Origin: Nitrospirota bacterium | GTDB lineage: Bacteria; Nitrospirota; Thermodesulfovibrionia; UBA6902; DSMQ01 | Reading direction: 5' to 3' | Length of the DNA stretch: 36,735 nucleotides | Assembly: GCA_016214355.1 (NCBI GenBank) | Contig: JACROO010000119.1 | Span: forward strand, 1 to 36,735 | Shown here: positions 23,490 to 36,735 of the stretch, piece by piece | How positions within the stretch are numbered: the first letter of the stretch is position 1 | Layout of the letters: each line of letters opens with the position of its first letter | Notes under the pieces: generated by a model | Told to the model about the DNA's origin: nothing | Database searches by the model: none | The model's input: only the letters and a program-made list of their open reading frames with translations | Position numbers and translations under genes: made by a program

Positions 23490-23551
23490 AAAATGCCTTG
23501 CCAACCATGAAACTCTATGGCTTACTCACCGCTTGAAAGGAGACCATAGAG

Positions 23552-23731
23552 ATGAATAGAGAAGAAATCGTCGCGAAAATCAAAAACAAATTGCAATATC
23601 CCAAGACGACACTGCAGTTGTTTGCGGAATTGAAAGCAGGTAGAAGGAAGCGGGTACCGGATTATTTTATCGCGGATGCGTTGAAAGAACTCGATAGAGT
23701 GGTTCGGCTTTTGAACAAGCTTGTGAAATAG
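23552..23731 (+). CDS. small helical protein, 59 aa (below track cutoff)
   Basis: SD GAAAGGAG (23535-42). Product is MNREEIVAKIKNKLQYPKTTLQLFAELKAGRRKRVPDYFIADALKELDRVVRLLNKLVK. Followed by a hairpin plus T-run. Confidence 0.45.
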   Translation: MNREEIVAKIKNKLQYPKTTLQLFAELKAGRRKRVPDYFIADALKELDRVVRLLNKLVK

Positions 23732-23757
23732 GAGCGCAAAGATATTAATATTCCATG

Positions 23758-23793
23758 GACCTCTGTTAGTTTTAATGACTGACGGAGGTTTTA
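23758..23793 (+). terminator. terminator candidate at the phage-host transition
   Basis: GACCTCTGTT (23758-67) pairs with GACGGAGGTT (23781-90): 10 bp including 3 G.U pairs, running into TTTT. Confidence 0.4.
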
Positions 23794-23806
23794 GCGTAGA
23801 AAACCC

Positions 23807-23835
23807 TTGCAGATAAAATGTTATTGGATTAAAAT
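23807..23835 (+). promoter_or_regulatory. sigma70-like promoter candidate for the two-component operon
   Basis: TTGCAG (23807-12), a 17-nt spacer, then TAAAAT (23830-35). Confidence 0.4.
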
Positions 23836-23847
23836 AAGACCTGTATA

Positions 23848-23940
23848 AGGGTCTGAGGAGAATAACTTTCCTCGGAGGTGAAATTCATTGATGGTCGGGC
23901 CGCCATCTTGCAGTTTTGCTGCAGGATGGCGTTTTACTTT
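23848..23940 (+). promoter_or_regulatory. conserved leader element, copy 1 (SD hairpin + invariant 21-mer + terminator)
   Basis: AGGGTC. Hairpin 23853-59/23869-75 overlaps GGAGG (23874-78). 21-mer TTGATGGTCGGGCCGCCATCT is at 23888-23908. A 12-bp stem (23902-13/23919-30) is followed by GTTTTACTTT. The same architecture is found at 29453-29543. Confidence 0.6.
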
Positions 23941-23977
23941 AAGAGTAACCACACAATCACGATGCGTATACTATTAG
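23891..23977 (+). CDS. candidate leader peptide MVGPPSCSFAAGWRFTLRVTTQSRCVYY
   Basis: ATG lies 12 nt after GGAGG. The first six codons are identical in nucleotides to the copy-2 mini-ORF. The ORF runs through the terminator and ends 16 nt inside the response-regulator gene. Confidence 0.35.
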   Translation: MVGPPSCSFAAGWRFTLRVTTQSRCVYY

Positions 23978-24630
23978 TAGAAGACGAAAAAAATATGGCA
24001 AGTTTTATCAAGCGCGGGCTTGAAGAGGAGCGCTATGTAGTCGATGTTGCCTCTAACGGGGAGAAGGCGCTTTTCTTGGCGGAAACAAATCCCTACGATT
24101 TGATAATTCTTGATGTAATGCTTCCGGATACTACCGGTCTTGTTATTTGTAAGGATTTGCGGGCTAAGAAAATAGACACTTTCATTCTCATGCTTACTGC
24201 TCGCGATGACGTTAAAGATAAAGTATTGGGCCTTGAGACTGGAGCGGACGACTATTTGGCTAAACCGTTTGATTTCGATGAGCTTCTAGCGCGGATTGCC
24301 GCGCTTTTACGCAGGAAACGCCTAGATAAAAGCCCTATTCTTAAGGTCGCGGATCTTGAATTAAACCAACTTACCCATAAAATCATACGGGCTAAAAAAG
24401 AGATAGTCTTGACCGGTAAGGAATATAGCTTACTTGAGTATCTCATGCTCCATGCCAATCAAGTAGTAACGAGGACTGAGATATCGGAACACGTTTGGAA
24501 CGAGGATTTTGACAGCTTGACCAATGTCATAGATGTATTTATAAACCGGTTGCGTAACAAGATTGACCAAGGTTTTAAGAAAAAGCTTATTCATTCTCTT
24601 CGCGGTACGGGCTACATACTTAAGGAATAA
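23962..24630 (+). CDS. OmpR/PhoB-family response regulator
   Basis: The receiver domain starts at MRILLVEDEK, with the ...DLIILDVMLPD phospho-acceptor region. C-terminal winged helix: LTGKEYSLLEYLM...VIDVFINRLRNKI...IHSLRGTGY. Confidence 0.9.
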   Translation: MRILLVEDEKNMASFIKRGLEEERYVVDVASNGEKALFLAETNPYDLIILDVMLPDTTGLVICKDLRAKKIDTFILMLTARDDVKDKVLGLETGADDYLAKPFDFDELLARIAALLRRKRLDKSPILKVADLELNQLTHKIIRAKKEIVLTGKEYSLLEYLMLHANQVVTRTEISEHVWNEDFDSLTNVIDVFINRLRNKIDQGFKKKLIHSLRGTGYILKE

Positions 24631-24632
24631 CG

Positions 24633-26087
24633 ATGCAAAAATCTTTTCGCCGAAAAGTTATGACCGGATTTTGGGTAATGGTATTCCTGTGCGCATTTAC
24701 GGTCCTATTTGCTTTTATAACTACGCGTAACATGCAGAGGGTTTTCTTGAGTACCATGAGAGATAATGTTGCGGCCCTTAAGGCAGCAGAGGAGTTGGAA
24801 CTGGCTTTGCTTAGCCAAAAAGGCTTTTTATCAAATTATTTTTTAGACGGCAATCCAACCTGGATAAAAAAACTCGAAGAAAAGAAAACTATCTTCTTGG
24901 ATTGGCTTAACAAGGCGTCAGATGCCGCTTTGACTCCGCCGGAAAAAGACATCATTGAAGACATTAAACGTCTTTACAAAATATATGAGACCGAGCGCTA
25001 TAAGGCTAAGCATCTTTATGATTCGGGGAATGTTCGGGGCGCTAAAAACGTACTTCTTAAAGACATGTGGGAGGCTTTCGAGGCCCTATATCAAAAGTGC
25101 GAGGATTTTATTCGTATTAACGAATCGATTATTGACAAATCAGAGGTTTCTTTACAAAGAAAAATCATAGGTATGATGGTCTTGATCACGGTTCCTGCGT
25201 TGGTTATAATTGCATTAGTCGGCTCCATGTTCTTTTTGTTAACGAGAAGAATTCTCGCTTCCGTTAAGGACATTACAATAACAACTCGTAATATTAATCT
25301 TAAAAGCCTAAGCGGGCGGGTGAGCACCGCAAATTTGGAAACGGAAATGGAGTATCTGGCTAAATCAATCAACATGATGCTTGAACGTCTGGAACGGTCT
25401 TTTGAATATATTAAGGAATTCAGCTCAAGTATCGGCCATGAATTAAAGAGTCCGCTTGCGATTATTAAAGGAGAGTCCGAGGTTGCATTACGCAAAGAAA
25501 GACAAGTTGAGGATTATCGAAAAGCCTTGAGCGTCAATATCGAAGAAGCAAATAGAATGATCCGCATTGTCGAAGATTTGGTTTTTTTGGCAAAACTCGA
25601 TTACAATCCGGATAATATCAAGAAAGAAGTTTTTGATTTTATTCCGTTTTTTGCGGATATACAGAAACGCGCTCAAACGCTTGTTGCGCAAAAACAAATA
25701 GAGCTTACAGCCACGATTCCCGAAGTCGCCGTTACTTTAGAGGGTAACAAATTGCATTTGAGCCGCCTGTTTTTTAATCTTATTCAGAACGCCGTTAAAT
25801 TTACGTCTTCAGGAGGAAGAATCAATCTATCCGTTCATCCGGAAAACGGCGTATTAAAGGTTTCTATATCGGATACGGGCCTAGGAATCAGCGAAGAAGA
25901 TTTACCCAGGATATTTCAGCGGTTTTTCCAAAAAGGAAAATCCGAATCGGAAAGCAGCGACAGTATCGGCCTGGGTCTAAGCATTGCCAAATCAATTGCA
26001 AAGTTTCATAGTGGCGACATTGAGGTAAAAAGCAAGCCCGGAGAAGGCTCAACTTTTTCCGTAATCCTGCCTATTTTTCACCCCTGA
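24633..26087 (+). CDS. membrane sensor histidine kinase (2 TM, HAMP, HisKA, HATPase_c)
   Basis: Starts 2 nt after the regulator stop. H-box is FSSSIGHELKSPLAII, N-box NLIQNAVKFT, G-boxes DTGLGI / GLGLSIAK. Confidence 0.9.
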   Translation: MQKSFRRKVMTGFWVMVFLCAFTVLFAFITTRNMQRVFLSTMRDNVAALKAAEELELALLSQKGFLSNYFLDGNPTWIKKLEEKKTIFLDWLNKASDAALTPPEKDIIEDIKRLYKIYETERYKAKHLYDSGNVRGAKNVLLKDMWEAFEALYQKCEDFIRINESIIDKSEVSLQRKIIGMMVLITVPALVIIALVGSMFFLLTRRILASVKDITITTRNINLKSLSGRVSTANLETEMEYLAKSINMMLERLERSFEYIKEFSSSIGHELKSPLAIIKGESEVALRKERQVEDYRKALSVNIEEANRMIRIVEDLVFLAKLDYNPDNIKKEVFDFIPFFADIQKRAQTLVAQKQIELTATIPEVAVTLEGNKLHLSRLFFNLIQNAVKFTSSGGRINLSVHPENGVLKVSISDTGLGISEEDLPRIFQRFFQKGKSESESSDSIGLGLSIAKSIAKFHSGDIEVKSKPGEGSTFSVILPIFHP

Positions 26088-26254
26088 TTTTTTCTTCATA
26101 TCCCAGCAATTAAAGTGATAAAAGATTACAAAAAATTAATTTAATGTTAATCTTCGGTTCATTGTCGGTCTGCTATCCTAAAGCATTATACAAGCAAGTG
26201 TATCTTTAGGCGAAAAGGAAAGCAAAACTTGGCAGTTTTTAAAGGGAGCTAGGC

Positions 26255-26641
26255 ATGAAAAGAATTCTTATTATCGATGATGAGCGAAGAATTGGCCAAT
26301 CTTATACGGTCTTACTTTCGGAAGAAGGATTTGAAGTTAAGTATGCCTCAAGCGCGCAAGAGGCAACCAATTTTTTGATCCGTGAACACTTCGATTTAGT
26401 GCTGCTGGATATTAACATGCCGGAAGTAGACGGCAAAGGAATGTACGAAGTTATTAGAGAGTATGATCGGAACATGAAAGTCATCGTTTCAAGCGTTTAT
26501 CCTATTGAAGAACAGGTTCAAAGCATCTTAGGGGCTTCTGCGTATCACAATAAGTCGCAAGGAGTAGATATTCTCGTTGCCAAGGTAAAAGAAGTATTAG
26601 ATGGTGGGGATGCCAGTAAAGATTCTCATAGTCCAAGATGA
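26255..26641 (+). CDS. stand-alone CheY-like receiver protein
   Basis: SD AAGGGAG. MKRILIIDDE...DLVLLDINMPEVDG...KVIVSS pattern. No output domain. Confidence 0.85.
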   Translation: MKRILIIDDERRIGQSYTVLLSEEGFEVKYASSAQEATNFLIREHFDLVLLDINMPEVDGKGMYEVIREYDRNMKVIVSSVYPIEEQVQSILGASAYHNKSQGVDILVAKVKEVLDGGDASKDSHSPR

Positions 26642-26865
26642 AGCAGGGATATCTGATGAAAAGCATAATCGGAATGAAACTTATATTTGCAATCTTGATA
26701 GCAATACTATTAGACGGATGCACGTTTATTGTTAAAGACGACCATGCCGCAAAATATTACGGTATAGACGAACAGCGGGGTGGTGAGTATTTGAATCAAA
26801 TCCTTGAGAAGCAGCAGCAAGTATATCAGACCGAAAAGGTTTCTGTTGGTTCCAAAAGGCCATAA
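26638..26865 (+). CDS. small lipoprotein candidate
   Basis: ATGA overlap with the receiver gene. Signal sequence with lipobox LLDGC. Confidence 0.5.
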   Translation: MKQGYLMKSIIGMKLIFAILIAILLDGCTFIVKDDHAAKYYGIDEQRGGEYLNQILEKQQQVYQTEKVSVGSKRP

Positions 26866-26878
26866 ACGGGGTGATTAT

Positions 26879-27826
26879 ATGAAAAAAATAATATTGGCGG
26901 TTGTTCTTGTTTTAACATTCTCCAATTTAAGCTATGCGGATTTTAAGCAGGAAAGAGAAGCAAAAAGAGAAAGCGAATTAAAAGAGCTTCAGAAGCGTTT
27001 TGAATGGTGGCCAACAGATGCAAAGCCGGGGCCGGTTAAGGATCCCGAGCGCGGCGGCTACTGGTGGTGGCCTAATGAGCCGGGTAAGGCGCGCCCCTGG
27101 GGTAATCGAGGATATGTGTATGTTTACAAGATTATTTTTGATTACAAGGAAGAAGAATTACCTCCTCCTAAGCCGCAGGAGCTCCGTCCTTCGTTACTTA
27201 TTAAGAAGATAATTAAGAACGTGAAAGTATATTTCGACTACGATAAAGCGGTCCTGCGAGATGATGCGGTAAGAATTCTTAAGAGCGCTATTGGAACTCT
27301 TAAGCGCAACCCGGAAACAAGCATTCTTGTTACCGGCAATTGCGATCGCCGCGGGTCGGAAGTCTATAATGAAAAATTAGGGAAACGCCGGGGAGAGGCG
27401 GTAAAGCGTTTTATGCTGGAGAATGGTATTGATGAATCCCGAGTAAAGATTATCAGCCGCGGTAAGTTGGATGCTATTGCTCGCGTTACAGATTTGGAGG
27501 GGATGCAAAAGGAAAGAAATGCCCAGTTTATGATCGCCGAAGTTGAGGAAGTTATGCTGCCGTATCCGGGAGTACCGCAGGAAGCTGAAGCAAAACCGGT
27601 AGAAGAAGGCAAGTATATTATTGAGAAGGAAGAGAAAGTCGAGGCAGAAGTCAAGGTAAGCACCAGAGAGTACACGGTTAAAAAAGGCGATACCCTTTCA
27701 AAAATAGCCAAAGAGCAGCTCGGCGCAGCGCATCGTTGGAAATATCTGTACGAATTAAACAAAAATGTTATTAAGGATCCCAATAAACTTAGGCCGGGGA
27801 AGAAAATAGTTATTCCGATTGAGTAG
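26879..27826 (+). CDS. OmpA-family peptidoglycan-associated protein with C-terminal LysM
   Basis: Signal peptide MKKIILAVVLVLTFSNLSYA. OmpA-like block is VYFDYDKAVLRDDA...LVTGNCDRRGSEVYNEKLGKRRGEAVKRFM. LysM is YTVKKGDTLSKIAKEQLG...LRPGKKIVIP. The track's upstream start 26804 is rejected. Confidence 0.85.
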   Translation: MKKIILAVVLVLTFSNLSYADFKQEREAKRESELKELQKRFEWWPTDAKPGPVKDPERGGYWWWPNEPGKARPWGNRGYVYVYKIIFDYKEEELPPPKPQELRPSLLIKKIIKNVKVYFDYDKAVLRDDAVRILKSAIGTLKRNPETSILVTGNCDRRGSEVYNEKLGKRRGEAVKRFMLENGIDESRVKIISRGKLDAIARVTDLEGMQKERNAQFMIAEVEEVMLPYPGVPQEAEAKPVEEGKYIIEKEEKVEAEVKVSTREYTVKKGDTLSKIAKEQLGAAHRWKYLYELNKNVIKDPNKLRPGKKIVIPIE

Positions 27827-27842
27827 CGGAGCCTTTTTAAGC

Positions 27843-28418
27843 ATGCTTAAGACACTGTTTTATATATTACCCCTCTTGCTGGTCGTGGTTATGTTTTTTG
27901 CGCCAGCGCGTAACTATGTAAATGGTCTATTGCATCGGGATAAGAAGGAATTACGCGAGGAAGAGGTTATCGGCAGAGTTTCCGGTTATAATCCGCGAGT
28001 CGGAGAAATACAGAAAGTCCTGAAGGAAGCCGGTTTTGACCCCGGTCCGGCGGATGGAATCATGGGAGCGCAGACAAGGACGGCAATTAAGGGGTTTCAG
28101 AAGGCGAAGGGATTGAAGTCTACCGGCAAGATAGATTCGGTAACTCGGCTTGCCTTAAATAGGACAGAGGAAGTCAAAAAGCCCGAGTTTAAGGAAGAGC
28201 CAGAACCTGATTCATGGGGAAATACTTCCTCCGATAAGTCAAAGCAGATTCAGATGGCTCTTAAGAGCTCCGGATTTTATAAAGGGGAGATAGACGGAAA
28301 AATAGGGCCTCGAACTAAAACCGCGTTAAGAGCTTTTCAAAAGGCAAACAATCTTAATCCAGACGGGGTAATAGGGTCTAAAACGTGGGAAGCACTAAAA
28401 AAATACCTGAAGAACTGA
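27843..28418 (+). CDS. membrane-anchored protein with two PG_binding_1 domains
   Basis: N-terminal TM segment, then IQKVLKEAGFDPGPADGIMGAQTRTAIKGFQKAKGL and IQMALKSSGFYKGEIDGKIGPRTKTALRAFQKANNL. No catalytic domain visible. Confidence 0.8.
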   Translation: MLKTLFYILPLLLVVVMFFAPARNYVNGLLHRDKKELREEEVIGRVSGYNPRVGEIQKVLKEAGFDPGPADGIMGAQTRTAIKGFQKAKGLKSTGKIDSVTRLALNRTEEVKKPEFKEEPEPDSWGNTSSDKSKQIQMALKSSGFYKGEIDGKIGPRTKTALRAFQKANNLNPDGVIGSKTWEALKKYLKN

Positions 28419-28447
28419 ATATCTTTTATTAAACAGGAGGAGAAGCT

Positions 28448-28843
28448 ATGTTTACAAGAATGATTTTGGTTGTTTTTCTTGCTTTTGCTTTAGCGGGGTG
28501 CGCAACGAATTCTAAAAAGCCGGCTACGCAATCACAGCCCGTAATGTCACAAAAAACATATCAGCAGGAATCGTATTTCAAGGGTTATGATGATAATGAT
28601 ACACGGTCGTCAGATAGCTATGAAAAACCGACTAAGAAAAATTATTCTGAACCCGTAATAGAATTAAGTCCAAAACAGATTCAGCGGACGTTGAAAAAAG
28701 CCGGTTTCTACAAGGGCGAGATTGACGGAAAAGTCGGATCTAAGACAAAAGAAGCTATTATGAGGTTTCAAAAAGCACACGGTCTCAAGGCTGACGGTAT
28801 TGTAGGTAAGAGAACAAGCGAAGAACTACGTAAATATCTTTAA
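28448..28843 (+). CDS. lipoprotein with one PG_binding_1 domain
   Basis: SD AGGAGGAG. Lipobox LAGC. IQRTLKKAGFYKGEIDGKVGSKTKEAIMRFQKAHGLKADGIVG. Confidence 0.8.
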   Translation: MFTRMILVVFLAFALAGCATNSKKPATQSQPVMSQKTYQQESYFKGYDDNDTRSSDSYEKPTKKNYSEPVIELSPKQIQRTLKKAGFYKGEIDGKVGSKTKEAIMRFQKAHGLKADGIVGKRTSEELRKYL

Positions 28844-28939
28844 GTCAAAGGCGTTTAAATAGAAGGAGGTGAGAAAATAAGAATACCAAAATTGGTGGTA
28901 GTATTTTATCGTAAATTATAAACTTAACCGGAGGATAAT

Positions 28940-29338
28940 ATGAGGAAGAGAATTTTTTGTTTAGCAATCGTTGCTTTGTTGATGTTAGGATTGACCAGTC
29001 AAGGTTTTTGCATGGCCAATAGGCCGCCTGCTTCAAAGAAATCTACAAGTAAACAGGTAGAACCTATCCAAAAAATTTCGGGAAAGGTTTCCGGTTATAG
29101 CTGGACAAATTCCACAATTACAATAACAACGGTAAGCGGTACTTCCATTACGGTTGAGATTGACAAGGTAACTAAGATTTCTAAATCGGGAAAATGGATA
29201 AAAATGGCCGATATCAAAACGGGTGATGCAGTGAATGCTGACTACGAAACAAAAGGCGGGAAAAGGGTAGCCAGGACAATTGTAGTGCAGGAGAAGGTTT
29301 CTCCTAAGGTCACAATTCCAGAGAAAAAGAAAAGATAA
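28940..29338 (+). CDS. secreted beta-rich protein, unknown function
   Basis: SD CGGAGGA. Has a signal peptide (MRKRIFCLAIVALLMLGLTSQGFC). No domain recognised. Confidence 0.6.
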   Translation: MRKRIFCLAIVALLMLGLTSQGFCMANRPPASKKSTSKQVEPIQKISGKVSGYSWTNSTITITTVSGTSITVEIDKVTKISKSGKWIKMADIKTGDAVNADYETKGGKRVARTIVVQEKVSPKVTIPEKKKR

Positions 29339-29395
29339 TTTTATCTACATTGCTATAGCTTACCGTATAAGGAGTTCTAAATGAATTGCAATTTT

Positions 29396-29424
29396 TTGAC
29401 ATTGCTATATAATGACACTAATGT
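29396..29424 (+). promoter_or_regulatory. sigma70-like promoter candidate for the OmpA/trehalose operon
   Basis: TTGACA (29396-401), a 17-nt spacer, then TAATGT (29419-24). Overlapped by the second copy of the 11-nt repeat ACATTGCTATA. Confidence 0.45.
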
Positions 29425-29452
29425 AAATACCTTTCTCGTAAATCTATATTTT

Positions 29453-29543
29453 AGGGTCCGGGAATACTTAAATATTCCCGGAGGAATTTTTGATGGTCGG
29501 GCCGCCATCTGAGTTAATCTCGGGTGGTGGCTTTTTATTTTTT
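29453..29543 (+). promoter_or_regulatory. conserved leader element, copy 2 (SD hairpin + invariant 21-mer + terminator)
   Basis: AGGGTC. A 9-bp hairpin (29458-66/29473-81) overlaps GGAGG (29480-84). The 21-mer is at 29490-29510. An 11-bp stem (29501-11/29521-31, 3 G.U pairs) is followed by TTTTTATTTTTT. Confidence 0.6.
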
Positions 29544-29564
29544 ACAACCAAGGGAAAAACATGA
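29493..29564 (+). CDS. candidate leader peptide MVGPPSELISGGGFLFFTTKGKT
   Basis: ATG lies 8 nt after GGAGG. The stop TGA 29562-64 overlaps the ATG of the next gene (ATGA). Confidence 0.4.
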   Translation: MVGPPSELISGGGFLFFTTKGKT

Positions 29565-29686
29565 AAACATTTTTTCAGGTGTTCAAAGAAGAGAAAGAAA
29601 TGAGATTTATTTTTGCAATTTTTACTGTCATGATTTTATTGGGCATAGGCTGCGTTATATTCGCCGTCGCTCATCCAGCAAGCTAA
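29561..29686 (+). CDS. 41-aa single-pass membrane protein (below track cutoff)
   Basis: MKTFFQVFKEEKEMRFIFAIFTVMILLGIGCVIFAVAHPAS. Start is coupled to the leader mini-ORF stop. Confidence 0.45.
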   Translation: MKTFFQVFKEEKEMRFIFAIFTVMILLGIGCVIFAVAHPAS

Positions 29687-29699
29687 TGGAGGATTACTC

Positions 29700-30371
29700 A
29701 TGAAGGCCCGGGTAACAATTTCTGCGATTCTAATAGTATCTATGTTATCTGGGTGCGCCTATATCCAGAAAGCCAAGAGAACCGATGAGCTTGAAGCTGA
29801 AAATGCCAGCCTAAGAAATAAGATTGGCCAACTTCAGAAAGAAAAAACAAAGGAAGTCCGGCGGATTTATGAGGAAAAAGATAAAGAGCTCTCCGAGCTT
29901 GAGCGGGCAAAACGCGAACTGGAAGAATCGTTAAAACAGGAAATCGGAGAATATAAGGCAAAGCTACAAATGACCGAGCGGGGCCTGGTGATTACTTTTG
30001 TTTCCGAAATATTCTTTGATTCAGGCAAAGACAAATTGAAATCTGACGGCATGATGACGCTTAATAAAGTCGCCGAAGTTTTGAATAAAGAAGTTCCTAA
30101 TTCAAATATGGCTGTCGAAGGTCATACCGATAACGATCCTATAAAACATTCTGGATGGAAGTCAAATTGGGAGCTCTCTTCTGCCCGGGCACTGGCAGTA
30201 TTGCACTATCTTATTAGCGAAGGCAAAATTAGGCCGCAGCGTCTTTCTGCAAACGGCTATGGAGAATTTCATCCTGTAGCGCCAAATGATACAGTGCAGA
30301 ATAAGCAGAACAATAGAAGGGTGGAAATCGTAATTCTGCCTTCCAAATTAAGCAAAGTGAAACTGCAGTAG
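29700..30371 (+). CDS. OmpA/MotB-domain lipoprotein with N-terminal coiled coil
   Basis: SD GGAGG. Lipobox LSGC. Coiled coil covers about residues 30-90. OmpA-like C-terminal domain: VEGHTDNDPI...NWELSSARALAVLHYL...GYGEFHPVAPNDT..NRRVEIVI. Confidence 0.85.
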   Translation: MKARVTISAILIVSMLSGCAYIQKAKRTDELEAENASLRNKIGQLQKEKTKEVRRIYEEKDKELSELERAKRELEESLKQEIGEYKAKLQMTERGLVITFVSEIFFDSGKDKLKSDGMMTLNKVAEVLNKEVPNSNMAVEGHTDNDPIKHSGWKSNWELSSARALAVLHYLISEGKIRPQRLSANGYGEFHPVAPNDTVQNKQNNRRVEIVILPSKLSKVKLQ

Positions 30372-30388
30372 GAAAGGAGCGTGCCGTT

Positions 30389-30586
30389 ATGTTTGATAAA
30401 ATGAACGAGAGATTAAGAAAATTAACGGTAATGGACATAGGGTTGGTAAAATGGTCGGCTTTTTTTGCAGCTGTTATAATTGTTAAACTTTTCCCGCAGC
30501 TTTTGAAAATTAACTACGGGGTTCTTATATTATTAACGATAGCTTGCGGTGCCAGGCCACTATACAAGTTTTGGATTAAAAAATAA
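30389..30586 (+). CDS. small two-TM membrane protein
   Basis: SD AAAGGAG. 65 aa with two hydrophobic segments. Confidence 0.55.
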   Translation: MFDKMNERLRKLTVMDIGLVKWSAFFAAVIIVKLFPQLLKINYGVLILLTIACGARPLYKFWIKK

Positions 30587-30605
30587 GTTAAAAGCCATTA
30601 ATTAA

Positions 30606-32843
30606 ATGAGAAGAGTATTTTTATTTATCCTACCCATTCTAATTATTGTTTCCGCGGCCTTTACGCTTTTTGGCTTCTTTCAGGTGCGCTTTGAAGAAGA
30701 GAAGCTTATTGATGATTTGAAAAGAAAAGCCAAAAGCGTTGCCGAAAGCATGGAATTGTCGGTACAGCATGTGCTTTCAGCCAATGATTTAAAAAATGCC
30801 AATTATCTTGCCGAGAAATTTGAGACTAGGGAAAGATTGCAGGGTTGTGTTATTTACGATAAAGACGGCAACATAATAGCGCTTACCAAAAGATTCGGTG
30901 ATTGGAAAGAAAAAGACAAGCCGTATATTAAAGATATTATAGCGAATAAGACTCCGCGGGGAGAGTTGGAGAAATTCAAAGATTATCAGGTTTATAGTTA
31001 TATTCTCCCTATAGTTGATGATGCGGGGCAGTTTTTGGGAATGGTTGAGGTTATACATGATACTTCCTATGTCTTCGCGAGATTGACTGAACTTTGGAAG
31101 CGCATTAGCTCAACGTTAATAATCTTAGTAGTAGTAATTTTTATTATCTCCATTTTTCTTCACAGGCAGATTTTTGCTCTGCCAGTACAGCGTTTAACAG
31201 ATTGGTTTAAGCATTTCCAGAAAGGCGAAACTGACGAAGCGCATCCAATAAGGGAAAAAGGAGATCTGGGTAAGCTTGCCAGCGAAGTCGAGCAGGTAGC
31301 ATTATCTTTAAGGGTTGCCCGAAGGACGATTTCAGATGAAGCGCAGGCACGCATGGAAAAAGAAGAAATATGGACAGAGGCAAAATTAAAGGATCTAGTC
31401 CATGCGAAGTTAGGAGAGAATGCCTTATTTATAGTGTCCAACCGTGAGCCTTATATGCATACAATAGATGAGGCAACTGGTTTAGAACAATGCATCAGGC
31501 CGGCAAGCGGCGTTGTTACTGCGATTCACCCGGTTCTATGCGCTTGTGGCGGCACATGGGTTGCTCATGGTGCTGGCAATGCGGATAAGAAATTCGTAAA
31601 TTCAAAGGATAAGCTCGGTGTTCCGCCTAAAGATATACGTTATATTCTTAAAAGAGTCTGGCTGGATAAAGAAGAAGAGGATGGCTACTATTACGGATTT
31701 TCCAACGAGGGCTTATGGCCGTTATGCCACAATACGCATACGAGGCCGGTTTTTCGGGAGTTGGACTGGCAGGCTTACAAAAAGGTGAATCAGAAGTTTG
31801 CGGATTCCGTTTTGGAGGAATTACCCGTCAAACATCCTTTTGTATTTATTCAAGATTATCATTTCACTCTGCTCGGGAAGATGATTAAAGAAAGGCGCCC
31901 CGATGCTACAATTGCGCTTTTTTGGCATATTCCCTGGCCTACACCGGAGGCATTCTCCATCTGCCCTTACCGCAAAGAGATTCTTGAAGGCATGCTTGGG
32001 TGCGATTTGATAGGTTTTCATGTCCAGAATCATTGCAACAATTTTCTTGATACAGCCAACAGACTCCTTGAATCAAGGGTTGATATAGAAAAATTCAGCA
32101 TTGTCCGTTCTGAAAAGGAAACTTTTGTTAGAGCATTTCCGATTAGCGTTAACGGGCATTTTAACCAAGCTGCGAAGGACGCGGACATAAAACGAGAGAT
32201 AGATAAAATTAAAAAAGAGTTTGACTTGGAAGGTAAAATTATAGGTTTGGGGGTTGACAGGATTGACTATACAAAGGGTATCGTTGAGAGAGTGCTTGCT
32301 ATAGACAGGTTTTTAGAGAAATACCCTCAATACAAGAAAAAATTCGTTTTTATTCAGCTTGCCGCTCCAAGCCGTGTGCATATAAAGCGTTATCATGACC
32401 TTATGGCAGAAATTGACGAATTAATCGAGAAGAAAAACTGGAAGTATTCTGATTCTGGCTGGAAGCCGATTGTTTATCTTAAAAGGCATTTTTCTTTGGA
32501 TGAAATCGAGCCTTTCTATAAAATGGCTGATCTTTGTATTGTAAGCTCGCTTCATGACGGCATGAACCTTGTGGCCAAAGAATATGTGGCAGCCAGAAAA
32601 GATTTGTCAGGGAGCCTTATATTAAGCCAATTTACCGGCGCAGCAAGAGAGCTTGTCGATGCTATTCAGGTAAACCCGTATTCAATAGAGGAGTTTGCCG
32701 ATAGCATACAATTAGTTCTTCAGATGCCACAGGATGAGAAAACAAAACGCATGGAAAAAATGCGGAAAGTTATTTCGGAGAATAATGTTTATCGCTGGGC
32801 AGGAAATATCATCACTGAGCTAGCGGCACTAAAGAAAGTATAA
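30606..32843 (+). CDS. otsA: membrane sensor-HAMP domain fused to trehalose-6-phosphate synthase (GT20)
   Basis: TM1 is at residues 4-25. An extracytoplasmic region of about 140 aa has Cache/PDC-like strands (GCVIYDKDGNIIALT; YSYILPIVDDAGQFLGMVEVIHD). TM2 (LIILVVVIFIISIFL) and a HAMP-like linker follow. GT20 motifs: FIVSNREPY, YYYGFSNEGLWPLCH, FIQDYHFTLL, FWHIPWP, DLIGFH, SLHDGMNLVAKEY. Confidence 0.85.
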   Translation: MRRVFLFILPILIIVSAAFTLFGFFQVRFEEEKLIDDLKRKAKSVAESMELSVQHVLSANDLKNANYLAEKFETRERLQGCVIYDKDGNIIALTKRFGDWKEKDKPYIKDIIANKTPRGELEKFKDYQVYSYILPIVDDAGQFLGMVEVIHDTSYVFARLTELWKRISSTLIILVVVIFIISIFLHRQIFALPVQRLTDWFKHFQKGETDEAHPIREKGDLGKLASEVEQVALSLRVARRTISDEAQARMEKEEIWTEAKLKDLVHAKLGENALFIVSNREPYMHTIDEATGLEQCIRPASGVVTAIHPVLCACGGTWVAHGAGNADKKFVNSKDKLGVPPKDIRYILKRVWLDKEEEDGYYYGFSNEGLWPLCHNTHTRPVFRELDWQAYKKVNQKFADSVLEELPVKHPFVFIQDYHFTLLGKMIKERRPDATIALFWHIPWPTPEAFSICPYRKEILEGMLGCDLIGFHVQNHCNNFLDTANRLLESRVDIEKFSIVRSEKETFVRAFPISVNGHFNQAAKDADIKREIDKIKKEFDLEGKIIGLGVDRIDYTKGIVERVLAIDRFLEKYPQYKKKFVFIQLAAPSRVHIKRYHDLMAEIDELIEKKNWKYSDSGWKPIVYLKRHFSLDEIEPFYKMADLCIVSSLHDGMNLVAKEYVAARKDLSGSLILSQFTGAARELVDAIQVNPYSIEEFADSIQLVLQMPQDEKTKRMEKMRKVISENNVYRWAGNIITELAALKKV

Positions 32844-32847
32844 CAGT

Positions 32848-33639
32848 ATGGAATATTTATTTGATCAGTGGGGGCAAGTCAAAAGGAAGCTAAACAATAA
32901 GCACATTGTGTTCTTTTTTGACTACGATGGGACTTTAACTCCGATTGCGGAAACTCCGCAGCAAGCGGTAATTCCTAGACAGGTGAAAGAATTGTTGAGG
33001 AAGTTATCACGAAAACCTAATTGTGCATTAGCCATTATCAGCGGGAGGGCGCTGGAAGATATAAAAGATCTCGTTAGGTTAAAAGGTATTATTTATGCCG
33101 GTAATCATGGGCTGGAAATTGAAGGCCCGAAAATTAAATTTGAAAGCCAGGTTTCACCGAGATTAAAGTCAGTTATACGCAATATTTATGAAGATATGGT
33201 TAACAAGCTTTCAAAAATCAAAGGAGTTTTAATAGAAGATAAAGGATTAGCTATCGGCGTGCACTATCGTTTGGTGGATGCAACAGATATCCAGGAGTTT
33301 TTGAACATCTTTTCCGAGATTACCGAGTCTTTTACGGTACGCGATAAGATTAAAATTAATGAAGGTAAAAAGGTGTATGAAATTAGGCCTCCGGTTGCTT
33401 GGGATAAAGGTAAAACAGTATTATGGCTTTTAGCAAGGCAGCAATTTTTAGTAGGCGAAGATAAAATTTTTCCCATCTACTTTGGGGATGATATAACCGA
33501 CGAAGACGGCTTCAGGGCATTAAAGAATAAAGGGTTAACAATATTTGTAGGCGAGCCAAAAGCCTCAGAAGCGGCTTATTATGTAAGGAATACAGAAGAG
33601 ATTACTCAGTTTATAAAGAAAGTTTTGGAGTTAGAATAG
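32848..33639 (+). CDS. otsB: trehalose-6-phosphate phosphatase (HAD family)
   Basis: Starts 4 nt after otsA. HAD motif I is FFFDYDGTLTP. ISGR, GNHG and the C-terminal GDDITDEDGF motifs are present. Confidence 0.85.
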   Translation: MEYLFDQWGQVKRKLNNKHIVFFFDYDGTLTPIAETPQQAVIPRQVKELLRKLSRKPNCALAIISGRALEDIKDLVRLKGIIYAGNHGLEIEGPKIKFESQVSPRLKSVIRNIYEDMVNKLSKIKGVLIEDKGLAIGVHYRLVDATDIQEFLNIFSEITESFTVRDKIKINEGKKVYEIRPPVAWDKGKTVLWLLARQQFLVGEDKIFPIYFGDDITDEDGFRALKNKGLTIFVGEPKASEAAYYVRNTEEITQFIKKVLELE

Positions 33640-33641
33640 CT

Positions 33642-34316
33642 ATGGCGCTAATATTAAAAGCAAAAGAGCCGTTTAGGTTTTACACACGTCTGCATTTATC
33701 AGAATTAACCGGTTTAAGAGCCACTACCTTAGATCAGCTGGTTAAGCTTATTAAGGATGTACCGGGATCTTGCATTTATCATCATACTCATAGGTTTTTG
33801 CAGCAACATCAGTTTTTTTCGCCCGAACCTCCAAACGACTTTGCCTATTGGGTTAGCGAAATATTAGGAGAGAAAGAGCTTGGCGAGCGGCTTGCAAGTA
33901 TAGATATAATGCAGTTCGCGAAAATTCATGATCTACGAGAGAGAATTATTTCAGTGATTGAAGAGTATTTAAAGGAGGGGCGTTTTGCCCAGCTTAAATT
34001 TGCCCGGGAAGGCGAAGAATTTTATTTTATAAAATCAGTGAGTTTTGTTATCCCGACAAATCACGTTGCCGACAACTTGGCAGATTTCGTTGAGATTATA
34101 AAGAAAATTACCTTTGATTCGATATATTTTCATATCTTTGAAGCGCGTCTGCGGCTTGAAAAGAAAGCAAACGACTTTTCTAACTGGATAGAGAATTCTG
34201 TTGGAAATAAGGAGCTTGCGGATGAGCTTGCGGCTTTAGATCCTTATACACGGACTCTTGATGACTTACGAAGCGCGATTATCAGCATTATCAATAAGAA
34301 ATTATTTGAGCAATGA
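33642..34316 (+). CDS. conserved hypothetical protein linked to trehalose genes (possibly DUF5752-like)
   Basis: 224-aa ORF, 2 nt after otsB and overlapping treT by 4 nt. The family assignment is only a recollection. Confidence 0.6.
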   Translation: MALILKAKEPFRFYTRLHLSELTGLRATTLDQLVKLIKDVPGSCIYHHTHRFLQQHQFFSPEPPNDFAYWVSEILGEKELGERLASIDIMQFAKIHDLRERIISVIEEYLKEGRFAQLKFAREGEEFYFIKSVSFVIPTNHVADNLADFVEIIKKITFDSIYFHIFEARLRLEKKANDFSNWIENSVGNKELADELAALDPYTRTLDDLRSAIISIINKKLFEQ

Positions 34317-35524
34317 TAAAACTTGAAGAATACATACCGATTGTAGGCCAATCCGTAATTGACGATTTAAGATTGATTGCAACCCGCCTTAAAGGCAAAA
34401 CCATACAGCACATTAACTCAACTTCTGTTGGAGGCGGAGTAGCTGAGATTCTTAGCCGTATGGTGCCTTTATTACAGGAATTAGGTGTTGGCGCGCGTTG
34501 GGATTTGATTAAGGGAGGGGAGCAGTTTTTTGAAGTTACTAAAAAATTCCATAATGCGCTGCATGGTTATCCAGGCGAAATAACAAAAAGAGACTTCGAG
34601 ATCTTCCTTGAAACAAGTCAGCAAAATATCAATGAGGTAGATACGTGCGGAAATATTGTGTTCATCCATGATCCCCAGCCGATTGCGCTGGTCAAGAGAA
34701 GACAGGGCAATAAGTGGCTTTGGCGTTGCCATGTTGATGTGTCTGATCCCAATGAAAAGGTTTGGAATTTTCTTATGGAATATATCGTGCGCTATGATGC
34801 AGCGGTATTTTCCGCTCCTAGTTTTTCGCGCAGGCTGCCGATTCGCCAGTTTCTGATTTCGCCATCAATTGATCCTTTAAGCGATAAGAATAAAGAATTG
34901 TCGCAGGAAACCATAGATAGAGTGTTGCTAAAATACCAAATTCCTAAAGATAAGCCTATTGTTACCCAGATATCGCGTTTTGACCGTTTAAAGGATCCTT
35001 TAGGAGTGATTGAAGCATACAGAGAAGTTAAAAAGTATATTAATTGCCGATTAGTTTTAGCAGGCGGCGGCGCTTCTGACGACCCAGAAGGGACAATGGT
35101 ATTTACGCAGGCGATGGAAATGGCAAAAAAAGACAAAGATATCCATGTTTTGCTTCTTCCGCAGAACGATATAGAAATCAATGCCTTGCAGCGGGCATCT
35201 ACGGTAATTATCCAGAAATCAATCCGGGAAGGCTTTGGTCTTACGGTTTCGGAGGCTCTATGGAAAGCAAAGCCGGTTGTAGCTTCTAATGTCGGTGGTA
35301 TTCCTTTACAGGTAAAACATAAATATTCTGGCCTATTATGTCATTCTATTCAGGGAGCTTCTTTCGCAATTAAGCAGCTCTTAAATAGCCCAGCATACGC
35401 GAAGAAATTAGGGGAGAATGGCAAAGAACATATTCGGAATAATTTTCTGATCACTCGGCATTTAAGGGATTATATGCTTTTGTTCCTTTCGCTATATCAT
35501 GGAGAGGATGTCGTTTATTTGTAA
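34313..35524 (+). CDS. treT: trehalose glycosyltransferring synthase, TreT-type (GT4)
   Basis: Blocks matching remembered archaeal TreT: INSTSVGGGVAEIL, FHNALHG, HDPQP, WLWRCHVD, SPSIDPLSDKN, VTQISRFD, DDPEG, NALQRAS, IREGFGLTVSEA, NFLITRH. Confidence 0.8.
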   Translation: MIKLEEYIPIVGQSVIDDLRLIATRLKGKTIQHINSTSVGGGVAEILSRMVPLLQELGVGARWDLIKGGEQFFEVTKKFHNALHGYPGEITKRDFEIFLETSQQNINEVDTCGNIVFIHDPQPIALVKRRQGNKWLWRCHVDVSDPNEKVWNFLMEYIVRYDAAVFSAPSFSRRLPIRQFLISPSIDPLSDKNKELSQETIDRVLLKYQIPKDKPIVTQISRFDRLKDPLGVIEAYREVKKYINCRLVLAGGGASDDPEGTMVFTQAMEMAKKDKDIHVLLLPQNDIEINALQRASTVIIQKSIREGFGLTVSEALWKAKPVVASNVGGIPLQVKHKYSGLLCHSIQGASFAIKQLLNSPAYAKKLGENGKEHIRNNFLITRHLRDYMLLFLSLYHGEDVVYL

Positions 35525-35536
35525 GAAGGAGATCGC

Positions 35537-35674
35537 ATGAAGCCTAGTGGTTGGATTTTTATGATTATTTCGTGGAGTTTTATTATCGGCATGCTTATAT
35601 TTTGCTATAGTCGAATATTCAGAAAAGACCTTGGCGGGGAAGATTCCAAAACATTAAAACGGCTTAGGAAATAG
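35537..35674 (+). CDS. tiny single-pass membrane protein 1 (45 aa)
   Basis: SD AAGGAG. Product is MKPSGWIFMIISWSFIIGMLIFCYSRIFRKDLGGEDSKTLKRLRK. Below the track cutoff. Confidence 0.45.
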   Translation: MKPSGWIFMIISWSFIIGMLIFCYSRIFRKDLGGEDSKTLKRLRK

Positions 35675-35683
35675 GAGGGGTTT

Positions 35684-35812
35684 GTGTCAACAAGTATATT
35701 ACAACAGTTAGGAGTTCTTGCTCTTGCAGTTTTGTTTTCGGTGTTATTTACTTCTATGAATAATAGAGAATCAAAAAATAAAAAAGAACGATTAAATAGC
35801 ATGAAAGAATAA
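35684..35812 (+). CDS. tiny single-pass membrane protein 2 (42 aa, GTG start)
   Basis: SD AGGAGGGG precedes GTG 35684. Product is MSTSILQQLGVLALAVLFSVLFTSMNNRESKNKKERLNSMKE. Confidence 0.4.
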   Translation: MSTSILQQLGVLALAVLFSVLFTSMNNRESKNKKERLNSMKE

Positions 35813-35910
35813 GAAAATGAACTAGACAGGGCAGGTGTTTGCTATGAGTATGGCAGTTACGTTTGTAGCTGCGGCATCTCCTATTTTGTTTGATTAACGA
35901 GAGGTTAAAA

Positions 35911-36033
35911 TTGGAAGACATCTTGCGTTCTTTAGCACCTATTATTGTTGTTTTAACGCTCATAATTTTCTCTGTAGCTTTTTCACATAAGATTAAAGAA
36001 GAAAATAAGCGTGATAAAGAAGATAAAAATTAA
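35911..36033 (+). CDS. tiny single-pass membrane protein 3 (40 aa, TTG start)
   Basis: GAGG lies 6 nt before TTG 35911. Product is (M)EDILRSLAPIIVVLTLIIFSVAFSHKIKEENKRDKEDKN. Confidence 0.35.
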   Translation: MEDILRSLAPIIVVLTLIIFSVAFSHKIKEENKRDKEDKN

Positions 36034-36051
36034 AAAAAGGAGAAATAAAAT

Positions 36052-36195
36052 ATGACTGGTAACTTATGGCAGGATTGGCCGGTGTATGTCCTTTTGGGAG
36101 CAGTAGTATTCTTTTTTGGGTATGTGATTATAAAAGGAAACATGCCGGATAAGCAAAGTAAGGGAAAAGATGATAATGAGGAAGTTAAGAAATAA
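36052..36195 (+). CDS. tiny single-pass membrane protein 4 (47 aa)
   Basis: SD AAAGGAG. Product is MTGNLWQDWPVYVLLGAVVFFFGYVIIKGNMPDKQSKGKDDNEEVKK. Confidence 0.45.
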   Translation: MTGNLWQDWPVYVLLGAVVFFFGYVIIKGNMPDKQSKGKDDNEEVKK

Positions 36196-36207
36196 AGAGG
36201 CGTTAAG

Positions 36208-36735
36208 ATGATTATTGTTTGGTTAAAATTTATCGTTTGTGCTGCTTTGATACTATTTGCTGGTAAGCGCGTCGCCAAATATGGAGATGCCATAGCAGAG
36301 AAAACGGGTCTGAGCGGTCTTTGGATTGGCGTGATATTGGTATCACTCGCCACAAGCCTTCCCGAATTATTTACAGGAGTGGGCAGCACAGTTTTTGTTA
36401 ATGCTCCTAATTTGACAACTGGTAATCTGTTTGGGGCGAATACCTACAATCTCATAAATATTGCTGTGTTAGATTTTATGCATAAGGGATCACCCTTATT
36501 AAGCTTAGTTTCTGCCGGGCAATTGTTAACCGCAGGATTAAGCCTTATTCCATTGACGATAGCTGCCGTTGGAATATTTCTAAGCCATCAATTTCCACAG
36601 TTAGCTTTTGCAAATATTAGCCTTTTTAGTATTTTAATTCTTGCTTCGTATCTTATTTGCGTAAGAATTATTTTTGGGTTTGAGCAAAAGCAACAGCAAA
36701 TTCTTAAAGAGCTACGCAAAGAAGAAAAAATTTTA
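36208..36735 (+). CDS. CaCA-family (Na+/Ca2+ exchanger-type) cation antiporter, 5' partial
   Basis: SD AAGAGG. The frame is open to the window end (176 codons) and is absent from the ORF track because it has no stop. Alpha-repeat motif is GVILVSLATSLPELFTG. Several TM segments. Confidence 0.75.
   Translation, partial: MIIVWLKFIVCAALILFAGKRVAKYGDAIAEKTGLSGLWIGVILVSLATSLPELFTGVGSTVFVNAPNLTTGNLFGANTYNLINIAVLDFMHKGSPLLSLVSAGQLLTAGLSLIPLTIAAVGIFLSHQFPQLAFANISLFSILILASYLICVRIIFGFEQKQQQILKELRKEEKIL

Follow-up and report, generated by a model that had tools for sequence, protein, structure and literature searches.

Two operons are preceded by a shared leader element

The DNA under study, referred to here as the window, is a stretch of 36,735 nucleotides from a Nitrospirota bacterium (contig JACROO010000119.1). 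The leaders and operons described below are encoded on its forward (+) strand. The first of two operons covers positions 23962–29338, an extent predicted from Pfam assignments and from synteny with the metagenomic loci L130, L169 and L165. It begins with an OmpR-type response regulator (23962–24630), followed by a histidine kinase with 4HB_MCP and HAMP domains (24633–26087), a stand-alone receiver (26255–26641), an OmpA-LysM protein (26804–27826) and two PG_binding_1 proteins (27819–28418 and 28448–28843), all identified by Pfam, and by a 132-aa ORF (28940–29338). The second operon (29561–35524, Pfam) opens with a 41-aa membrane peptide (29561–29686), and a second small membrane ORF of 65 aa is located at 30389–30586. 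Its Pfam-assigned products are an OmpA-family lipoprotein (29700–30371), an sCache-fused trehalose-6-phosphate synthase OtsA (30606–32843), the trehalose phosphatase OtsB (32848–33639), a DUF5752 protein (33642–34316) and a TreT-type trehalose synthase (34313–35524). The region from 434 to approximately 23500 is a prophage-like block encoding terminase gpA, a lambda-type portal and tail proteins, and both operons lie in the host DNA flanking it. A search for a prophage attachment site revealed neither a tRNA gene in the window nor any att-like trace of the tRNA present at locus L169.

Both leaders are situated in the 5' UTR, between a promoter-like site and the operon on the same strand. Upstream of copy 1, the sequence TTGCAG-17-TAAAAT (23807–23835) is present as read in the initial annotation, and is a putative promoter with a predicted transcription start at approximately 23842, a few nucleotides 5' of the element. 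By consensus this promoter is weak, its -35 hexamer matching only three of six positions, which is why it was missing from a consensus promoter scan. Over the promoter region (23798–23853), copy 1 and the orthologous locus L165 share 96% identity. Copy 2 is preceded by TTGCAA-16-TATAAT (29386–29413), likewise a candidate promoter, which agrees with the consensus at 10 of 12 positions.

Both leaders are built alike: AGGGTC comes first, then a hairpin that ends with GGAGG, then a 21-mer, and finally a strong hairpin of terminator type followed by a T-run. In copy 1, AGGGTC (23848–23853) and GGAGG (23874–23878) were found where the initial annotation had placed them. Its observation that the order recurs together with an identical 21-mer was confirmed by checking the coordinates: TTGATGGTCGGGCCGCCATCT is located at 23888–23908 and its exact second copy at 29490–29510. 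In 100 shuffled sequences TTGATGGTCGGGCCGCCATCT was not found at all, even with three mismatches allowed, compared to the two matches in the window. A repeat, a mobile element or a recent duplication was also considered as the origin of the pair and rejected; the copies differ outside the invariant core and have distinct orthologues.

Both leaders belong to the nhaA-I riboswitch family

The whole window was compared to Rfam 15 at curated thresholds. Only two matches reached the gathering score, one at each copy, and both were to RF03057 (nhaA-I; gathering threshold 37 bits), a motif described in 2017 as a candidate sodium-related cis-regulatory RNA. Copy 1 (23849–23908) scored 48.3 bits and copy 2 (29454–29510) 56.8 bits, each covering model positions 1–55 of 55. 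A permissive scan of 23700–29700 (E ≤ 10) revealed no competing family on either copy and only noise elsewhere. The covariance model of the DUF1646 motif (Na+-I), a system that resembles the window copies in its two-hairpin architecture, its terminator platforms and its overlapping osmotic and Na+ regulon (DUF1646, Na+ transporters), gave no match in the same region at E ≤ 10; its lower P1 and P2 loop carry a set of conserved nucleotides distinct from theirs. The hallmarks of nhaA-I are found in both copies: a 5' GGGU, a variable but covarying P1, the AGG junction, a P2 closed by a U.G pair and the invariant CGGGCC loop. Thus, the two leaders are copies of the already described cation-sensing riboswitch nhaA-I (Li+-I/Na+-II class). 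The initial annotation had called the element unclassified and had let its novelty depend on an Rfam scan; with confident, full-length matches to RF03057 above the curated threshold, that label no longer applies. The element is real, but since it belongs to a known family there is little new in it, and nhaA-I (Li+/Na+) riboswitch is the appropriate annotation for both leaders.

The Rfam alignment assigns each part of the leaders to the aptamer. In copy 1 (23849–23908), the aptamer consists of the 5' GGGU, stem P1, the AGG junction, a linker and hairpin P2. P1 (23853–23875) comprises nine pairs (23853–61/23867–75) around a 5-nt loop, as supported by folding, the Rfam alignment and covariation in 65 relatives, and an optional tenth pair can be formed between U23852 and A23876. 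The hairpin previously placed at this site is therefore present, its length however being 9–10 pairs rather than 7. What had been interpreted as a hairpin presenting a Shine–Dalgarno (SD) sequence is the aptamer stem P1, and GGAGG (23874–23878) marks the transition between P1 and P2, combining the last two bases of P1 with the conserved AGG junction, the columns of which are invariant or nearly so in the alignment of 65 terminator-type sequences. GGAGG is hence a part of the aptamer and not primarily a ribosome-binding site. Similarly, the 21-mer, listed earlier as a part in its own right, is hairpin P2 with its family-invariant CGGGCC loop (cGaUGGU-CGGGCC-GCCAuCg), which is near-invariant across the nhaA-I family. 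In copy 1, folding and the Rfam alignment place P2 at 23890–23907 (GAUGGU, CGGGCC loop, GCCAUC). Copy 2 (29454–29510), again defined by Rfam and folding, has P1 at 29458–66/29473–81, the AGG junction at 29482–84 and P2 at 29492–97/29504–09.

A comparison of P1 between the two copies revealed that six of ten pairs are identical, one differs on one side and three differ on both sides. The three doubly changed pairs are true compensatory changes. The earlier description of the two hairpins as unrelated sequence that still pairs was correct with respect to compensation, but overstated, given the six identical pairs.

Relatives of the leaders show strong covariation and a recurrent set of downstream genes

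Metagenomes were scanned with the pattern GGTC-N10-30-GGAGG-N4-16-TGGTCGGGCCGCCA, which yielded at least 120 loci with at least 122 instances, at least 120 of them unique. In a scan of 13 metagenomic and viral loci with RF03057 all matched; L047, L116 and L150 gave no match above threshold. Among the matches listed, a terminator overlapping P2 was observed in 65 of 122 evaluable instances, and P1 was represented by 117 distinct sequences in 120 instances. Terminator-type relatives occur in metagenome-assembled genomes of Syntrophaceae (L047, L116) and Omnitrophica (L042). A genome scan with the 14-mer TGGTCGGGCCGCCA contained about 20 real motifs among the 119 matches listed, the remainder being mostly chance matches in GC-rich coding DNA. 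The scan of viral contigs identified a single copy on one unrelated contig.

For the analysis of covariation, 65 terminator-type sequences were aligned, including both window copies and the riboswitch of Desulfobulbus propionicus. P1 and P2 were paired in 95.9% of the cells of this alignment, with 107 double-sided changes distributed over 10 of 14 pairs. None of 500 shuffles reached the observed covariation values, and when the partner was slid by 1–3 columns only 33–59% remained paired.

Orthologues of the copy 1 operon are present at L130, L165 and L169, with 81–85% nucleotide identity; the L165 regulator is 91% identical at the amino acid level. In all three loci the riboswitch is kept, each time with a different P1, indicating that riboswitch control of the two-component operon is conserved.

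The first gene downstream of terminator-type relatives was evaluated in 46 cases among the matches listed. In nine of these it encodes a GT20/OtsA protein, mostly as the same fusion of about 745 aa, while OmpR-type regulators (3), MscS (3) and DUF1646 proteins (2) were found repeatedly. Single cases among the same matches comprise a histidine kinase, a Na+/H+ exchanger, a P-type cation ATPase, a citrate-family transporter and a PG-binding protein. Of 17 control members of the GGGUG..CAGG type collected from genomes, 10 have NhaA downstream and 16 are devoid of a T-run.

Hairpin P2 overlaps an intrinsic terminator

Both aptamers run into an intrinsic terminator. The terminator of copy 1 (23901–23935) consists of a 14-pair stem (23901–14/23918–31) followed by TTTT, with a folding energy of -24 kcal/mol. 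In copy 2 (29499–29543), a stem of 15 pairs and its 5-nt loop (29499–29533) precede a T-rich tail (-22.8 kcal/mol). A hairpin with a T-run after each copy had already been recognized in the initial annotation, although the stem of copy 1 was given there as 12 pairs instead of 14. In both copies, the 3' arm of P2 (23902–07 and 29504–09) lies wholly within the 5' arm of the terminator, hence only one of the two structures can form at a time. The alternative GATGG/CCATC pairing suggested earlier is the P2 stem of the aptamer itself, and it is indeed in competition with the 5' arm of the terminator. When leaders ending after the 21-mer were folded, P1 and P2 (GAUGG/CCAUC) were obtained, while the full leaders formed P1 and the terminator. 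The full leaders fold considerably better than shuffled sequences (z = -4.9 and -5.6). The proposal of a functional cis-regulatory RNA, with stems that covary and a terminator as its expression platform, was supported.

These features suggest how the leaders might operate. The nascent RNA would fold into P1, the conserved AGG junction and hairpin P2 (GAUGGU-CGGGCC-GCCAUC). Binding of a small monovalent cation would keep P2 closed, its 3' arm would be withheld from the terminator, and RNA polymerase could enter the operon. In the ligand-free RNA, the terminator would form as the more stable structure, and transcription would be expected to stop at approximately 23935 (copy 1) or 29540 (copy 2). 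As the 3' arm of P2 doubles as the 5' arm of the terminator, a ligand-stabilized P2 would block termination, resulting in an ON switch, and by analogy this is the best-supported mechanism for both copies. We infer response and ligand of the two copies; ligand-dependent antitermination is known for their D. propionicus relative. For switching of this RNA in single-round transcription, E. coli RNA polymerase is sufficient, without ribosomes, and its response is lost upon exchange of the last two G's of GGAGG (GG-to-AA, M2) or mutation of the loop (M3) (White et al., 2022, PMC9646797). We consider it about 85% probable that each element is an nhaA-I transcriptional ON riboswitch, with Na+ as the most likely and Li+ as a possible signal.

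The MVGPPS frame is most likely a by-product of P2

As stated in the initial annotation, the ATG at 23891 opens a frame of 28 codons (23891–23977) that stops at TAG (23975–77), and the regulator ATG (23962) has no SD sequence of its own. The stop lies 13 nt past the A of the regulator ATG. The corresponding frame of copy 2 (29493–29564) has 23 codons, and its TGA overlaps the ATG of the following ORF. We judge both frames, the second of which appears incidental, to arise most likely from the conserved RNA hairpin P2: AUG GUC GGG CCG CCA is the P2 consensus read as codons. In about 70% of the relatives among the matches listed the base preceding UGG is A, and in about 20% it is G. This base pairs with the base after CCA, and among 120 of the listed matches the pair is A-U in 78, G.U in 18, G-C in 5, C-G in 4, U.G in 2 and U-A in 1. 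Residues past MVGPP vary (S, F, P, A and others), tracking the covarying stem, and some frames stop at codon 7–8. Among the relatives listed, the median distance to a stop is 23.5 codons in the MVGPPS frame and 20 codons in frame +1, hence the length of the frame is not outstanding and lends no support to coding. A stop near the start of the next gene was observed in 8 of 44 cases for the MVGPPS frame, versus 6 of 45 and 6 of 46 for the other two, again among the matches listed. Among the four orthologous leaders, the window and L130 have a 28-codon frame whose stop lies 13 nt into the regulator, L165 has a stop after 8 codons in the terminator loop, and in L169 the frame is fused in frame to the regulator. 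Conservation of start, peptide or stop position relative to the terminator or the following gene, as expected of a leader peptide, was thus not observed. The mini-ORF had been listed as a part of the element, but its codons are dictated by the RNA consensus of the family and its end is not conserved. In an annotation, the MVGPPS frames should be left out of the gene list.

Two other types of control had to be weighed against a riboswitch. In a leader-peptide attenuator, ribosomes would translate MVGPPS and pause at Pro-Pro, thereby deciding between termination and read-through, and/or they would couple into the regulator, which lacks an SD sequence. The leaders do resemble leader-peptide attenuators, including polyproline or antibiotic stalling leaders, in that a short ORF and an SD-like sequence overlap a terminator and an alternative hairpin. 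In nearly all terminator-type relatives listed, GGAGG is located 6–10 nt 5' of an AUG (approximately 70%) or GUG (approximately 20%), so that the short frame may be translated, and the SD-less regulator start as well as the overlap of TGA and ATG in copy 2 would suit translational coupling. However, the linker of the aptamer is itself conserved at this length of 6–10 nt, the codons coincide with family-invariant RNA sequence, and the A of the AUG takes part in a covarying pair of P2. Unlike in such attenuators, neither the peptide nor its length nor its stop position is conserved here: the peptide diverges after MVGPP, some frames end within eight codons, the end differs even among four orthologous leaders, and distances to the stop and to the next gene do not differ from those of the other frames. 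The sequence is instead fixed by pairing and by the invariant loop. Moreover, the D. propionicus homologue carries UUAGCC at this site, without AUG or Pro-Pro, and still switches with purified polymerase alone. Control by a leader peptide is therefore very improbable. Even less credible, to the point of being negligible, is a DNA operator, in which the GATGG...CCATC palindrome of the 21-mer would be bound by the encoded response regulator, controlling both operons and itself. The 21-mer does contain an inverted repeat and is placed ahead of the regulator's own gene and of the second operon. Sites of OmpR-family regulators, however, are usually direct repeats; the 21-mer lies 3' of the promoters, inside a transcribed structure, and its flanking pairs covary as RNA. 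In addition, the same core is present in many phyla before unrelated genes with no such regulator nearby.

The window copies combine features of Na+-II and Li+-I riboswitches

Most members of nhaA-I are Li+-selective ON switches (Li+-I) located ahead of nhaA (White et al., 2022, PMC9646797). Rare terminator-bearing variants are activated by Na+ (Na+-II) and had been seen only in Deltaproteobacteria, before hypothetical genes (PMC9646797). We note that this restriction probably stems from the database then searched. Within that study, terminators were confined to the group of Na+-responsive variants (PMC9646797). In the D. propionicus riboswitch the exchange C54U (M4) widens the response to Li+, Na+ and NH4+ (PMC9646797). 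From the published wild-type and M4 template sequences, position 54 is the base directly before CGGGCC; it corresponds to U23895 in copy 1, as mapped from the M4 template, and to U29497 in copy 2.

The window copies share with the D. propionicus 'hypo' riboswitch (Na+-II, PMC9646797) the 5' GGGUC, P1, the GGAGG junction and a P2 with a CGGGCC loop. Furthermore, in both cases the 3' arm of P2 serves as the terminator 5' arm, an arrangement that gives an ON logic, and the genes downstream are not nhaA. They differ from it in the P2 stem, which is GAUGG/CCAUC here and GUUAG/CUAAC in D. propionicus, and at position 54, where U replaces C and a U.G pair closes the loop instead of C-G. Of the marks of the Na+-II subclass, an intrinsic terminator overlapping P2 is present in both copies, and C54, the base that confers selectivity for Na+ over Li+, is present in neither. 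The lower P1 of GGGUC...GGAGG is likewise that of D. propionicus, a comparison that is our own and not a published criterion. Typical Li+-I members match the window copies in the P2 consensus, including U54, and in the two-hairpin architecture, and the window copies match RF03057 over its full length. In contrast to the window copies, however, they carry GGGUG...CAGG at the base of P1, precede nhaA and appear to occlude the ribosome-binding site rather than to use a terminator; in the window the base of P1 is GGGUC...GGAGG, both leaders carry terminators and nhaA is absent. Lower P1 sequence, terminator platform and regulated non-nhaA genes match the Na+-II type. A loose regular expression for C54 variants returned only noise among the collected relative loci.

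Which cation is sensed can thus be approached from the scaffold, from position 54 and from the regulated genes. The envelope and compatible-solute gene sets favor Na+, and we regard a raised level of cytoplasmic Na+ during salt or osmotic stress as the somewhat more probable physiological signal. Na+ selectivity is not to be assumed, since both copies carry at position 54 the U of Li+-selective members instead of the C of the validated Na+-II riboswitch; for the same reason Li+ may also trigger the switch. The only data for U54 in a scaffold of the Na+-II type come from mutant M4, which responded broadly, and it is this C54U mutant with lost Na+ selectivity that the window copies, with their natural U54, resemble at that position. 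In a strictly Li+-selective variant of the same mechanism (Li+-I proper), envelope and trehalose functions would form a response to lithium toxicity. The U at the specificity position would be explained by this, otsA is occasionally associated with Li+-I, and Li+ affects eukaryotic trehalose metabolism (White et al., PMC9646797). The lower P1 and junction, on the other hand, are GGGUC...GGAGG and not the GGGUG...CAGG of NhaA-linked members, and a terminator platform was seen in 2022 only among Na+-responsive variants. The regulon of the subtype is also osmotic and Na+-related (trehalose, MscS, DUF1646, P-type ATPase, Na+/H+ exchanger) with no NhaA (PF06965), and Li+ is scarce in nature. Li+ selectivity is therefore unlikely. 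Still more doubtful, in our view, is that the subtype with GGGUC/GGAGG, U54 and a terminator, abundant in metagenomes and linked to trehalose synthesis, MscS channels and two-component systems, might constitute a specificity class distinct from Na+-II and Li+-I, a broad sensor of small cations or ionic strength (Na+/Li+/NH4+) like C54U, in which the near-universal GGAGG-N6-10-AUG/GUG, as a genuine initiation site, could add a translational layer. The combination itself is of interest: a common natural subtype joins the scaffold of Na+-II to the base of Li+-I at the only mapped specificity position.

A putative cation-sensing RNA heads both a signaling and a trehalose operon

Signaling and peptidoglycan-related genes were noted in 2017 as rare associations of nhaA-I. 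White et al. (2022) list otsA among the associated genes (16 of 944) and left undecided whether otsA-associated members sense Na+ (PMC9646797). In the window, one cation-sensing RNA heads two operons, one for a two-component system and envelope proteins and one for the synthesis of trehalose, a compatible solute. Given the two-component system behind copy 1, the riboswitch is placed upstream of a protein signaling cascade. The arrangement at copy 2 has counterparts elsewhere, the same OtsA fusion being located directly behind the riboswitch also in L150/L042, L239, L181 and others. Among named relatives, the one closest to the OtsA fusion of the window (71% amino acid identity) is encoded in an Omnitrophica metagenome-assembled genome and has the riboswitch directly upstream.

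Trehalose genes behind the second riboswitch copy

In the operon headed by the second nhaA-I riboswitch copy, trehalose-6-phosphate synthase (OtsA; 30606-32843, + strand, 745 aa) is a fusion protein, in which an N-terminal single-Cache domain (sCache_3_2) and a membrane segment precede the GT20 domain. The same sCache-GT20 fusion was found in an Omnitrophica metagenome-assembled genome (L042/L150, 71% identical) and in a further locus, L239. Among the matches listed, it is the commonest first gene after terminator-type relatives of the riboswitch, occupying this position in 9 of 46 (724-767 aa). As a sensor-enzyme fusion for compatible-solute synthesis, it may merit separate study. Two routes of trehalose synthesis, OtsAB and TreT, are encoded in the operon, with a DUF5752 protein (33642-34316, + strand) between OtsB and the TreT-type trehalose synthase. 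Between the riboswitch and otsA, the gene of an OmpA-family lipoprotein is flanked by two small predicted membrane ORFs of 41 aa (29561-29686) and 65 aa (30389-30586, both + strand), neither of which had a Pfam match.

Regulator start and expression platforms

The response-regulator gene behind the first copy lacks a Shine-Dalgarno sequence (window 23940-23964). At two loci carrying orthologues of this operon, the regulator ATG lies just 3 nt past the terminator T-run (L165, 880-925) or the P2-derived frame, a short 'MVGPPS' ORF read from the aptamer hairpin, is fused in frame with the regulator (L169, 480-560). A GC-richer subgroup of aptamers with GGUC/GGAGG and U54, the specificity position, has no T-run (metagenome loci, e.g. 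L125, L129, L159, L173, L179, L190 and L226). On the 3' side of the aptamer these instead carry a long conserved hairpin (UCCGAAGAACUGAAUUGC...GCAAUGAAGCUUCGGAU), which is a different, putative expression platform.

Multiple copies and the prophage-like block

As in the window, nhaA-I copies are clustered at several loci: two or more lie within a few kb of one another, and every copy precedes one or more genes of its own. Two copies lie at 731-783 and 4297-4347 of L200, and two on opposite strands in L218. One copy is found on an IMG/VR 'viral' contig, UViG_3300009538_000029, perhaps again in host DNA beside a prophage; the copy at L241 (518-568) is listed with this contig and the multi-copy loci. 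The window contains a prophage-like block (434-23500, + strand) encoding an HTH_36 protein, ParB_N with an N6/N4 DNA methylase, terminase gpA, a lambda-family portal and a 1360-aa NlpC/P60 and Phage-tail_3 protein. Its tail genes (tail tube, DUF2460, BR0599) resemble those of gene transfer agents. No tRNA gene was found within the window. The window is similar to L165, the orthologous host locus, only from 23798 onward, so the phage/host junction probably falls inside 23500-23798.

At the other end, a Logan contig (L240, run SRR12113407; 1-4635 versus window 33141-36735) is 100% identical to the window 3' end, and the public metagenome it comes from probably contains the organism of the window. 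Past the window end it carries several short ORFs, followed by a Na+/Ca2+ exchanger gene (PF01699).
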